64,000 nucleotides of DNA from NCBI GenBank assembly GCA_012960465.1, contig DUBF01000166.1, forward strand, positions 5,284-69,283, written 5' to 3'. This document shows, piece by piece, positions 48,383 through 60,230 of this stretch (the first letter of the stretch is position 1; every line of letters begins with the position of its first letter). A model generated the notes under the pieces. It did no database searches and was not told the origin of the DNA. It worked only from the letters and a program-made list of their open reading frames with translations. The DNA comes from Rhodospirillales bacterium (lineage in GTDB: Bacteria > Pseudomonadota > Alphaproteobacteria > Rhodospirillales > UBA2165). Made by a program: the position numbers and the translations under genes.

Positions 48383-48458
48383 GGGGCCGTAGCTCAGTTG
48401 GGAGAGCGCTACAATGGCATTGTAGAGGTCATCGGTTCGATCCCGTTCGGCTCCACCA
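48383..48458 (+). tRNA. tRNA-Ala (anticodon GGC)
   Basis: 76-nt cloverleaf folded by hand. Acceptor GGGGCCG/CGGCTCC with the Ala identity pair G3:U70. D-arm GCTC-AGTTGGGA-GAGC. Anticodon arm CTACA-ATGGCAT-TGTAG. T-arm ATCGG-TTCGATC-CCGTT (one U50-U64 mismatch). Encoded CCA. Confidence 0.94.
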
Positions 48459-48478
48459 ATCTTTTCAATGACTTAGAT
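48410..48478. repeat. attL-side copy of the island direct repeat (tRNA-Ala 3' 49 nt plus ~20 nt flank)
   Basis: tacaatggcattgtagaggtcatcggttcgatcccgttcggctccaccaatcttttcaatgacttagat recurs at 60163-60230 with 5 substitutions and 1 indel. Confidence 0.85.
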
Positions 48479-48539
48479 GTATAATGACTACCCGTTAAAA
48501 CAGTCTTGTTACACTGTTGTCACAGCGGGGTTGTTAATT

Positions 48540-48695
48540 ATGTCTTCTATCCGTAAGAGGGGATCAAAAAGGAACGTTCAGATCAGACGTTCAGGTCTCC
48601 CAAATCTATCAAGAACGTTTATCCTTAAAACAGATGCAGAAAAGTGGGCCACTGCCATGGAAGCTGCTCTCGATATTCTTCCCTCAATTCTCTAA
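48540..48695 (+). pseudogene. Tyrosine-recombinase (phage-type integrase) N-terminal fragment
   Basis: MSSIRKRGSKRNVQIRRSGLPNLSRTFILKTDAEKWATAMEAALD matches the common N-terminal arm-binding region of tRNA-targeting island integrases (IRKRG.KW.VQIRR.G....SKTF..K.DAE.WA). The frame stops after 51 codons, and the catalytic R..HxxR..Y domain is absent from the window. Confidence 0.7.
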
Positions 48696-48744
48696 CCATT
48701 ACCCCAACTCGATTCACGAGCTTTGAAGCTCTCTTGTGACCTTA

Positions 48745-57701: not shown

Positions 57702-59017
57702 GTGTCGGGGCTCATCCAATGACGCCAGGCCTTGGATTGCGTGCGTAATGGCAACTCGCTAGACGTCGTTGACTGCAATGCGTTGCCATTTTTTTGATCT
57801 GTCTTTATTCCACGACGACTATCGAGCCTATCTAAGCTACCTGTCTCCAGGCCGGCTTGTACCCGCCCAAAAATTTCCAAGTCATCTGAAAAAATCATAG
57901 ACGCTGGAGAAACTAGCGTGCCTAAGAATCGAACGGCCCGGTAAAATATTTCATCTGGTGCGCCCTTAAGGCGGAAGCAATAACCCTTGATAATAGTTTC
58001 ATTAACGGCAACAGGGTACACGACGCGGATCTGATGAAACTGAGCATTCACGTTTAAATTAGGCCAGACTAAATTATTAAACCTATCCATACCTAGAATT
58101 TTTGCTGCTTTTTCTTTACCGTGGGAAGCTTCCAATGCCTCCCTGTAAGTTTCAATTGCGGCATCCGACTGCTGAGGCGCAAGCAGTCCCGACTTGTAAA
58201 AGCCTCCCATAAAAGAGTGTCCTTGCGGCAAACCATTAAGCTCGATCGCATTCCAGTCCTTGGCTGTTAATCCATTGGACGCCATCATGCCTTTAGTTTG
58301 GCCTCGGTCCACTAATTCATCTTGTGGGGTGACACCACCTTCAGCCTGGCGGGCTGAGGTCACTGAAGATTCGTGGACGTAGCCAGGATGAACCGTATCA
58401 TTAGCGTTCTCATGATGCAGCTTCCAATTTCCATGATAGCGAACCGAAAAGTGTCCGCCCTCCATAACAATTTCCCCGTCTGGCGAACGGTCAAGTAGAT
58501 TGTCGATGGCTTCTGTCATACGTCCCAGAAAATCGTACAAGTTAGGTCCGGCAGTTGCCTTGCTCGCGAAGATAAATCCGCGATAAGATTCTACTCGTGC
58601 AGCCGATATTAAATGCAAAGCCTTATCCTTAATATCAAATGATCCAGGATAGCTTTCAATATCAGGGACTGCTTTCAACACACCATCAAGAGCAAAGCCC
58701 CAGGCATGATAAGGACAGACAAAGGATTTTGTGTTGCCCTGGGCAACAGCGCAGAGGCGCGTGCCACGGTGGGTGCAGTTGTTCGAAAGCACGCGGAGCG
58801 AGCTATCAGGCTGTCGCACTAGAAGTATTTCATCAACGCCCATTCGAGTACGTATAAAGTCGCCAGAGTTTGGTACTTGACTATCATGGCCTATAAAAAT
58901 CCAAGCGCGACGAAAAATTTGATCCATCTCGAGTTCAAAAATGTCAGGGTCCGTATAGGCCCTAGCCTGCATTCCATCCACGCCGGCAATGTTATTTATC
59001 TCATCGATCGTAAGCAT
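57698..59017 (-). CDS. Rieske non-heme-iron oxygenase alpha subunit
   Basis: Rieske CTHRGTRLC...CPYHAW. Mononuclear iron site NANDTVHPGYVH. 439 aa. Confidence 0.9.
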   Translation of the reverse strand: MLTIDEINNIAGVDGMQARAYTDPDIFELEMDQIFRRAWIFIGHDSQVPNSGDFIRTRMGVDEILLVRQPDSSLRVLSNNCTHRGTRLCAVAQGNTKSFVCPYHAWGFALDGVLKAVPDIESYPGSFDIKDKALHLISAARVESYRGFIFASKATAGPNLYDFLGRMTEAIDNLLDRSPDGEIVMEGGHFSVRYHGNWKLHHENANDTVHPGYVHESSVTSARQAEGGVTPQDELVDRGQTKGMMASNGLTAKDWNAIELNGLPQGHSFMGGFYKSGLLAPQQSDAAIETYREALEASHGKEKAAKILGMDRFNNLVWPNLNVNAQFHQIRVVYPVAVNETIIKGYCFRLKGAPDEIFYRAVRFLGTLVSPASMIFSDDLEIFGRVQAGLETGSLDRLDSRRGIKTDQKNGNALQSTTSSELPLRTQSKAWRHWMSPDT

Positions 59018-59231
59018 CGATAAAGTATAAATTTGCTTTCTCTCAGGTCAAGCCATATGAGTGGATTGAAGCCTATGCCTAAACTTTCAAGATCTTTGTA
59101 TTGCAATGAAAAGAATTTAATAAAGCTCCTCGTTAAAAACCTTTTTATCATAGGAATTTTAAATACCATAAGTAATCAAATTTTTTGTTGTCTATTACGT
59201 CTCATAAGACAGATTATTTGTAGTGATACAC

Positions 59232-60119
59232 CTATAATGACATTTGTCTCAGTGCAGCTTTTACTAATTCGCTATCCGCCCGTCCAAATTCATTAGTCAC
59301 ATCAAAATGATTTAAGCCTTCTAGTTTTATGGTCTGACAAGAATTACCGGCAGCTTGCCAAGCATCTGCATATGCTTGCCCTTGCCGTTGAAACTCATCT
59401 AACTCACCATCACCCCAACAGATAACAATCTCAGACCCTGTTTCAGGAATGTGTTTTAAAGGATTATTCCGATCTGTTTCCTCTTGATTGAGATTTAAGT
59501 AATCATTCCTGGCGCTTAACCGAACTGGCTCAAGGTCATACGGACCGCTGGCTAAAACCGCACCTTTGATAATATTTTCTGGCAACCCAAACTTCTTTTG
59601 CCAGTCTTCTGATAATAAATTTGCCGCTAGATGCGCGCCCGAAGATGCTCCCGATATAAATATTTTTTCGGGGTCTCCATTAAAAGAAGCTGCATTTCGC
59701 CACACCCATTTTATACCGGCGCGTATTTGGTCAACAATTTCACTGATTGAGTACTCAGGTACCAGACCAAAATTTAATGGAATAAAAGTTGCTCCAGCTG
59801 AAACAAAATGTGGGGCAGGATAACAAGCATGTTCTTTACTAAGCTGGCGCCATGCACCACCATGAATGTGAACATGAATGGGGGATTTTTTATTTACCGC
59901 TGGGAATATATCGAGTATCTCTACTTTTTCAGAACCATAAGAAACGTCTAACGTACAAGTTAATGACTCGCACACCTCTTTTCCTGACGTGGCCCAATAC
60001 TCAAGGTAGGGTGTGATATCGGGAACCAAGGTAGCCTGATTATATTGGGCATTAAGCTCTTCCTGGGTGTAGTCTCTGTACACAAATAATTTTTTCATAT
60101 TATTACTTTCTAATATCAA
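59232..60119 (-). CDS. Alpha/beta hydrolase (fold-3 esterase / arylformamidase-like)
   Basis: Oxyanion motif HIHGGAW, nucleophile elbow ISGASSGAHLA and a C-terminal GLNHF His. 295 aa. Confidence 0.8.
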   Translation of the reverse strand: MILESNNMKKLFVYRDYTQEELNAQYNQATLVPDITPYLEYWATSGKEVCESLTCTLDVSYGSEKVEILDIFPAVNKKSPIHVHIHGGAWRQLSKEHACYPAPHFVSAGATFIPLNFGLVPEYSISEIVDQIRAGIKWVWRNAASFNGDPEKIFISGASSGAHLAANLLSEDWQKKFGLPENIIKGAVLASGPYDLEPVRLSARNDYLNLNQEETDRNNPLKHIPETGSEIVICWGDGELDEFQRQGQAYADAWQAAGNSCQTIKLEGLNHFDVTNEFGRADSELVKAALRQMSL

Positions 60120-60162
60120 AATTTCAAACTGGTGGATCAGTCTCCAGACAAGGCTATACCAT

Positions 60163-60230
60163 TACAATGGCATTGTAGAGGTCATCGGTTTGATCCCGTT
60201 CGGCTTTACCATTCTTTGCAATGACTTGAT
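60163..60230. repeat. attR-side decayed copy of the tRNA-Ala 3' half plus flank
   Basis: tacaatggcattgtagaggtcatcggtttgatcccgttcggctttaccattctttgcaatgacttgat. Compared with the functional gene, it has lost the conserved T-loop C (ttCgatc to ttTgatc) and two acceptor-stem bases (ctCCacca to ctTTacca). Confidence 0.85.

Follow-up and report, generated by a model that had tools for sequence, protein, structure and literature searches.

Genes and features of the locus

The chromosomal segment downstream of a tRNA-Ala(GGC) gene in an uncultured Rhodospirillales bacterium carries a candidate genomic island, which we describe here from a 64,000-nt stretch of contig DUBF01000166.1 (assembly GCA_012960465.1). 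We call this stretch the window; coordinates are those of the window unless another sequence is named, and related sequences are given L numbers. The island is 11.7 kb long and is bounded by two direct repeats, labeled attL and attR according to our interpretation. From left to right, the locus contains the intact tRNA gene (48383–48458, + strand), which forms the left boundary and the presumed integration target; the left repeat copy (attL, 48410–48478), which begins inside the tRNA gene; an 81-nt spacer from the tRNA to the integrase start (48459–48539); an integrase remnant of 51 codons (48540–48695, + strand); a collinear 11.4-kb block of cargo genes (48740–60111); a 51-nt segment (60112–60162); and the right repeat copy, which forms the right boundary (attR, 60163–60230). 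DNA other than cargo therefore amounts to only 281 nt (spacer, remnant and 44 nt) plus the 51 nt between the cargo and attR, which are the only such DNA on the right side. The core genes adjoining the island are a FYDLN_acid family gene on the left (47783–48208, + strand; Pfam PF09538, E 4.4e-14) and a GSCFA-family gene on the right (60287–61525, − strand; Pfam PF08885, E 1.6e-38).

The tRNA gene is the only one that ARAGORN finds in the window, and it scores 59.7 bits against Rfam RF00005 (gathering score 29). A repeat search paired 48410–48474 with 60163–60227 in direct orientation (65 nt, 92% identity), and blastn extended the match to 48410–48478 and 60163–60230 (69 columns, 5 mismatches, 1 gap). 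Counted along the tRNA, the repeat opens at position 28, which is the second base of the anticodon stem on its 5′ side; it takes in the CCA and continues for about 16–20 nt into the flank. The tRNA fragment within attR (60163–60211, + strand) has three mismatches to the last 49 nt of the tRNA gene: the T-loop C is replaced by T at 60191, and CC is replaced by TT in the 3′ acceptor strand at 60206–60207. In the flank, A at 48459 is paired with T at 60212, T at 48465 with G at 60218, and attL has an extra A at 48475. A preliminary description of the window had reported a repeat of the same extent, with three substitutions in the tRNA part and two substitutions plus one indel in the flank, and both searches reproduce it. 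Allowing up to three mismatches, a search for the 49-nt tRNA segment returned exactly two matches in the window and none in 100 dinucleotide-preserving shuffles of it. An 18-mer that resembles the T arm, inside a cargo gene for a molybdenum (Mo) hydroxylase (52159–52176), was treated as a chance match.

The 3′ half of the tRNA is identical in all functional copies of the clade (window, L002, L031, L020, L034 and L035), and attR carries four private substitutions in 65 nt, three of them in its tRNA part. Within the T stem of the tRNA (T arm 48431–48447), cmscan marks a non-canonical U50–U64 mismatch; this pair is G–C in L014 and L016, and U–U also in L030. The mismatch is shared with the empty-site allele described below and therefore belongs to the host tRNA.

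A truncated integrase beside the tRNA

The integrase remnant opens with an ATG at 48540, 81 nt past the tRNA end. Codons 1–45 (48540–48674) are homologous to the N-termini of tyrosine recombinases, and the last six codons and the stop are unrelated sequence. The 51-aa stub by itself has no match in Pfam, NCBIfam or PHROGs; its homology is therefore established by tblastn and by an intact relative instead of by profile libraries. Against plasmids, tblastn aligns the stub with N-terminal segments of proteins annotated as site-specific integrases (best E 2e-4). The intact relative lies on L030, which came to light when metagenomes were scanned with aligned related stubs. It is a tyrosine recombinase of 326 aa with a Pfam PF00589 Phage_integrase domain (E 3.5e-26), and its reading frame likewise starts 81 nt downstream of a tRNA-Ala(GGC). 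The stub shares 38 of its 45 homologous residues with this protein (84% identity, E 1e-23), which bears out the earlier identification of an integrase N-terminus at this spacing.

A tblastn search of the window with the intact L030 protein aligned residues 1–45 and gave no other significant segment. The C-terminal catalytic domain (R-H-R-Y) is absent from the window; consequently, the island is unable to excise or integrate by itself, as the preliminary description had proposed in calling the integrase destroyed and the island immobilised. That description had also suggested looking for the same island with an intact integrase. None of our searches found one, and L030 provides a related intact integrase only. 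Searching viral contigs with the intact integrase returned only relatives at or below about 42% identity, too distant to place the crossover.

Occupied and empty sites in one population

An exact look-up of the window's GSCFA protein returned eight metagenome contigs. One of them, L002 (GCA_029935955.1), carries the FYDLN_acid gene, tRNA-Ala(GGC) and the GSCFA gene with nothing between them, and its GSCFA protein is identical to that of the window. Outside the repeat, L002 differs from the right flank of the window by 2 mismatches in 3773 nt and from the left flank by one substitution and two in-frame indels; this near-identity places L002 in the same population as the window. A more distant relative, L035 (77% GSCFA identity), has its tRNA-Ala 35 nt from the GSCFA stop, and tRNA–GSCFA adjacency is therefore likely the ancestral state. 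An empty site in which the tRNA-Ala directly precedes GSCFA, as predicted in the preliminary description, thus exists in both. The in-frame indels on the left, of 6 and 9 nt, fall in the acidic repeat region of the FYDLN_acid gene (47977–48082) and separate the island-bearing from the empty haplotype.

The site is occupied in the window, L001, L004, L007, L019 and L031. L019 is an 86-kb contig from a Guaymas Basin plume metagenome (metagenome 3300001683 is identified as Guaymas Basin plume by PMC4962555) and is 99.88% identical to the window over 20 kb. Some members of one population carry the island and others lack it, a point that the preliminary description did not hold. Because it segregates in this way, it is not a fixed relic.

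Counting from the tRNA end, the empty site of L002 resembles attR at position +1 (T) and attL at +7 (T), and its C at +11 is private. We rejected two origins of this sequence, a chimeric assembly through the repeat and a simple attL–attR deletion, since the private C at +11 and the mix of bases go beyond any single switch between attL and attR. About 16 nt after the tRNA are also found in the empty sites of L002, L034 and L035. The similarity beyond the tRNA end, which had been read as a sign of age, is therefore a property of the site and says nothing on age.

Other look-ups added little to this comparison. The GSCFA protein found no relative in a scan of genome contigs, and AroA found only L021, the nearest genome (78% identity, labeled Rhodospirillaceae), in which the corresponding position lacks a tRNA. 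Neither the FYDLN nor the DctM protein of the window gave a record when looked up exactly.

Different cargo and truncated integrases at the same tRNA

Relatives carry longer integrase stubs of 74–87 aa at an equal distance from tRNA-Ala(GGC), 82–87% identical to that of the window and cut at about codon 72. Three types of truncation can be told apart: at codon 45 in the window type (48540–48695), at about codon 72 in L014–L018 (for example, 212–475 in L014 and 1796–2020 in L016), and at about codon 72 with different downstream DNA in L020 (245–502). In L014, the stub is followed by an HpcH aldolase gene and a CoA-transferase gene. In L034 (78% GSCFA identity), the interval between tRNA and GSCFA holds 6 kb (9734–15724) with LysR, MTHFR and the B12-dependent methionine synthase MetH. 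The site is a hot spot: in relatives, it is empty or holds the catabolic island, the LysR–MTHFR–MetH genes, or the HpcH/CoA-transferase cargo. Near the GSCFA gene of L034, a 24-nt stretch weakly matches the tRNA, starting in the anticodon loop; 6 of 2000 shuffles reach its score and similar scores occur elsewhere in the contig, and we leave this possible decayed tRNA fragment as a hint.

The ratio of nonsynonymous to synonymous substitution rates (dN/dS) differs between and within stub types. Over the first 45 codons, dN/dS between types is 0.12–0.16 at a dS of about 0.6, and within types it is about 0.7 or all changes are nonsynonymous. The within-type changes are 0 synonymous and 3 nonsynonymous between the window and L031, and 5 and 12 between L014 and L016 (Fisher p ~0.03). 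The low ratio between types indicates that they diverged while the integrase was under selection and were truncated independently later; the substitution counts within types indicate that the stubs drift after truncation. If deletion ends fell at random in a 1-kb gene, they would rarely all lie in its first 220 nt.

Sequences resembling tRNA-Ala(GGC) also occur twice in L032 (60–170 and 5262–5366) and once in L033 (9805–9910). In each of them, about 37 additional nt separate 'GGGCCGTA' from 'GCTCAG' near tRNA position 8–10, and the two copies in L032 flank a frameshifted integrase of the same family together with cargo. They could be pseudo-tRNAs, tRNAs with an unusual insertion, or a tandem att structure.

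Cargo genes and predicted function

The cargo block comprises 11 open reading frames (ORFs), all of them intact. It begins with a TRAP transporter, a predicted importer of an organic acid, encoded on the − strand by the large permease gene dctM (48745–50112; Pfam PF06808, E 3.7e-68), the small permease gene dctQ (50087–50617; PF04290, E 5.2e-19) and the solute-binding protein gene dctP (50648–51604; PF03480, E 2e-17). A three-subunit Mo-hydroxylase follows, also on the − strand. Its large subunit belongs to the xanthine dehydrogenase / CoxL family (51725–54079; Pfam MoCoBD_1, MoCoBD_2 and Ald_Xan_dh_C), stays below all NCBIfam equivalog cut-offs, and has as its best solved relative the large subunit of quinoline 2-oxidoreductase (1t3q_B, 450 bits). 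The small [2Fe-2S] subunit (54084–54566; Fer2_2, E 3.1e-24) and the medium FAD-binding subunit (54559–55416; FAD_binding_5, E 1.5e-45) complete the enzyme.

Two genes on the + strand come next. The first encodes a 128-aa VOC / glyoxalase-family protein (55673–56059; Glyoxalase, E 2.1e-14), with the start at 55673 taken from the L001 and L019 gene calls (the longest ORF runs from 55466). The second encodes an enolase-superfamily (MR/MLE) enzyme (56071–57237; MR_MLE_C, E 2.1e-30) whose best solved relatives are 4kem_A (309 bits) and Bll6730 (2dw7, 290 bits). The block returns to the − strand with the beta subunit (57234–57719; Ring_hydroxyl_B, E 3.2e-24) and the alpha subunit (57698–59017; Rieske and Ring_hydroxyl_A) of a Rieske oxygenase. 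The best solved relatives of the alpha subunit are 9o71_A and 7yls_B (~280 bits), which are IadD-type oxygenases of auxin degradation. The last gene, on the − strand, encodes an alpha/beta-hydrolase of the hormone-sensitive-lipase (HSL) type, an esterase (59232–60098; Abhydrolase_3 and BD-FAE); it scores 115 bits against the NCBIfam HSL family, below the cut-off, and its longest ORF reaches 60119. As far as these domain assignments go, the cargo most likely serves to import and oxidise an aromatic or N-heterocyclic carboxylate, a prediction in which we place low confidence. All 11 cargo ORFs are transport or catabolic genes, and Pfam finds no phage structural or replication genes and no conjugation genes in the island.

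The G+C content is 0.46 in the island and 0.40 in the rest of the window. Within the cargo it forms a mosaic, with 0.42 in the TRAP genes, 0.49 in the core from Mo-hydroxylase to Rieske oxygenase and 0.42 in the esterase gene. On the left of the island, the core chromosome continues beyond the FYDLN_acid gene with aroA (46235–47572) and cmk (45603–46232), both on the − strand. On the right, just past the GSCFA gene, lie a VanA-like Rieske oxygenase gene (61741–62811) and a glutathione S-transferase gene (62780–63646); the adjoining chromosome thus already encodes aromatic-compound metabolism. Far from the island, window positions 2001–4000 have a G+C content of 0.34 and a GC skew of −0.17 to −0.18, compared with about 0.40 G+C for the window, and may be another foreign or unusual segment.

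The cargo outside the island

The same 11 genes occur in the same order on L036, where blastn aligns them at 87.7% identity with window positions 48740–60111. At one end the homology gives out 5 nt beyond the stop codon of DctM, and at the other 13 nt upstream of the esterase start. The flanks of L036 are unrelated on both sides and contain no tRNA, stub or attR. A sub-module of the cargo, consisting of the Mo-hydroxylase (large, small and medium subunits) and DctPQM, is found at 69% DNA identity to the window in L037 (2162–16566), L038 and L039. Its partners there are a dihydroorotate-dehydrogenase-like pair, hydantoinase A/B, GntR and a CoA-transferase, a combination that hints at an N-heterocyclic acid as the substrate of the transporter and hydroxylase.

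Divergence and recombination

L031 comes from a diverged lineage and has the same arrangement of FYDLN_acid gene, tRNA, 45-codon stub and DctM gene. Its identity to the window varies sharply along this arrangement: 100% in the tRNA, 86.4% in the spacer, 98.1% in the stub and 86% in DctM. In L036, the TRAP genes are 96–98% identical to those of the window and the other cargo genes 80–90%. These identity mosaics are direct signs of homologous recombination.

The repeat and its surroundings also diverge unevenly. Between L002 and attR there are 5 differences in 65 nt, but only 2 in the 3773 nt of adjoining flank; this concentration of mismatches has a Poisson p of 4e-10 at equal rates and still 7e-4 if the repeat evolves 20-fold faster. 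Given this disparity, the divergence of the repeat is not a clean clock. L019 and the window, which both carry the island, differ at 5 positions in 10.3 kb of island and at 19 in about 10 kb of flank. The signs of age (the private substitutions of attR and the arrangement shared with L031) and these complicating observations together would fit an insertion allele and an empty allele, both old, that are kept apart at the att site, with the core DNA homogenised, or the alleles themselves moved, by recombination.

Interpretation and alternatives

We consider it very probable that the locus is a degenerate, self-immobile genomic island at tRNA-Ala(GGC), with catabolic cargo, in an uncultured deep-sea alphaproteobacterium. 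The empty site, the genuine integrase stub and the repeat all speak for the island that the preliminary description had proposed. According to this interpretation, an element with a tyrosine recombinase would have entered the 3′ half of the tRNA gene by site-specific integration and regenerated the tRNA, leaving the displaced 3′ fragment at its far end as attR. The integrase codons past 45 would later have been deleted, and with them self-excision and self-integration lost. The island would now be a flexible chromosomal locus whose carriers and non-carriers coexist, and exchange of the locus and its sub-modules would rely on homologous recombination via the conserved flanks and not on the integrase.

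Several observations weigh against this interpretation. A complete intact relative of the island was not found, and the position of the crossover is placed by the geometry of the repeat only. The base at +1 is private to attL and the base at +7 is private to attR, and no single crossover fits attB, attL and attR together. The attR mismatches could have come with attP instead of arising by decay. L036 has the cargo with no att or integrase feature beside it, and the cargo block may not have arrived with the integrase. Finally, no cargo enzyme reaches an equivalog cut-off and the cluster offers the Rieske oxygenase neither a reductase nor a ferredoxin, which makes the assignment of a substrate weak.

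The age of the insertion is where the preliminary description holds only in part. Its view of an old insertion is favored by the four private substitutions of attR and by the junction shared with L031; the repeat divergence on which it leaned is an unreliable clock, and the island is not fixed. The description of attR as a displaced, unselected remnant agrees with three private changes in a tRNA half that is otherwise invariant in the clade, with the reservation about attP made above. The opposite view is that the insertion is recent: the crossover would lie near the tRNA 3′ end, the repeat mismatches would be differences between attP and attB, and the island would be immobilised without being old. 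The excess of mismatches between L002 and attR relative to the flank, the diversity of the island among carriers, which is no higher than that of the flanks (5 against 19 in L019), and the intact state of every cargo ORF are what this view would predict. We nevertheless find it improbable. The diverged L031 has the same stub/DctM junction with a DctM only 86% identical, the start of the repeat in the anticodon stem fits an anticodon-loop crossover that makes attR displaced host DNA, and the invariance of the tRNA 3′ half in the clade marks the three attR changes as derived. A related proposal reverses the direction of change, so that the island is ancestral in the species and the empty allele of L002 is a secondary deletion, by recombination between the repeats or by an integrase acting in trans. 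In favor of this, the diverged L031 carries the island, direct repeats of 65 nt are able to mediate deletion, and the same environments contain related integrases that are intact (L030). The site in L002 is not an attL/attR recombinant, having T at both +1 and +7 and its private C; an anticodon-loop crossover would have moved the three attR substitutions into the tRNA, which is intact in L002; and tRNA–GSCFA adjacency is also found in the distant L035. We give a secondary deletion a low probability.

The origin of the cargo is a separate matter. The integrase element may not have brought it at all: the 11.4-kb block could have replaced the interior of an older degenerate island, removing integrase codons 46 onwards. 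The block on L036 with its unrelated flanks, the related stubs beside different cargo in relatives, the G+C mosaic, and the sub-module with other partners in L037–L039 all favor such a replacement. Set against it, a dN/dS of 0.12–0.16 between stub types means that the integrases were functional until late, which fits separate integrations with their own cargo; the borders of the block show no recombination scar or mobile element; and L036 could equally be the secondary context. On balance, a replaced interior seems to us rather unlikely, although it deserves to be taken seriously. There is next to no probability that assembly produced the repeat or the whole island, be it by duplicating a tRNA end or by joining sequences chimerically. 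Short-read metagenome contigs do break at the repeat borders (48410/48422 and 60219–60223), as is expected where two alleles meet at a repeat in the assembly graph. L001, L004 and L007, which are independent assemblies, nevertheless share an identical attR junction, and the junction of attL, stub and DctM recurs in the Guaymas Basin contig L019 and in L031; with L036 included, the junctions are the same across assemblies of independent projects. The repeat is therefore not an assembly duplication, the outcome that would have overturned the preliminary description, and two copies that differ at 6 positions are no collapsed duplicate.

A more speculative idea, to which we assign only slight credence, is that tRNA-Ala, stub and attR form a frame that works as a reusable landing pad, in which catabolic modules are swapped by homologous recombination without the integrase. 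If so, the recurrent survival of the integrase N-terminus alone would be more than chance: the stub, or the DNA that encodes it, might be retained because it serves a purpose, for example as a small arm-type DNA-binding protein that blocks re-integration at this tRNA or as a signal needed at the tRNA 3′ end.

Significance and comparison with known systems

As an island of an ordinary kind, the locus leaves knowledge of tRNA-targeted islands unchanged. Its value lies in catching a mobile island as it turns into ordinary chromosome, with the occupied site, the empty site, an intact relative of the integrase and an alternative home of the cargo all at hand. The new points are the presence and absence of the island within a population, the cargo block in L036, and other cargo beside independently truncated stubs. 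The 11.4-kb block is a candidate pathway for the uptake and oxidation of an aromatic or N-heterocyclic acid, carried by only part of a population in the Guaymas Basin plume and elsewhere, and the locus could be used as a marker of strain-level niche differences in the use of deep-sea organic matter.

Flexible islands are familiar from marine bacteria. Prochlorococcus islands are flanked by tRNA genes and partial tRNA repeats, and Alteromonas has additive flexible islands. The present locus shares with them its presence or absence in the population, varied cargo at the same tRNA and mosaic identities; it differs in being known from metagenome contigs of an uncultured alphaproteobacterium and not from isolate collections. 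Among catabolic elements, ICEclc is about 100 kb long, sits at tRNA-Gly in Pseudomonas, has an intact integrase and transfers by conjugation. Both elements have an integrase gene beside a tRNA and cargo for aromatic degradation, including a Rieske oxygenase. In contrast to ICEclc, the island described here spans 11.7 kb, its integrase is dead, and Pfam detects neither transfer nor phage genes in it.

At the level of the cargo, quinoline 2-oxidoreductase (1t3q, 450 bits) and the Variovorax IadCDE system (~280 bits) are the closest solved relatives of the two oxidative enzymes. The iad pathway includes a reductase, a CoA ligase, a thiolase and dehydrogenases, and those parts of its published accounts on which we draw mention no Mo-hydroxylase or racemase-type enzyme (PMC10374108; bioRxiv 10.1101/2025.10.25.684584). 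The cargo here has a Mo-hydroxylase and an enolase-superfamily enzyme, and we rejected an auxin (iad) locus on this ground, within the limits of those partial accounts.

The closest structural match is to the islands described by Islander, in which crossovers use three subsites of tRNA genes and the island restores the split gene, leaving a displaced fragment at the far end (Hudson, Lau & Williams 2015, PMC4383910). The geometry of our repeat fits the anticodon-centered att class, which is site 'A' of Islander and sublocation I of Williams 2002 (cited in PMC4383910). As in those islands, one end carries an intact tRNA and the other its cognate 3′ fragment in direct orientation, the integrase adjoins the tRNA, the identity block extends from the anticodon stem through the 3′ end, all of them features by which that paper maps islands (PMC4383910), and an unoccupied site is available for comparison. 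Two features differ: the identity block here runs about 16 nt past the tRNA end into sequence of the empty site, and only 45 of about 326 integrase codons are left, so that the locus lacks an integrase gene and would fail the Islander integrase filter. Consequently, the island is best placed beside the Islander class as a degenerate descendant and not as a functional member.

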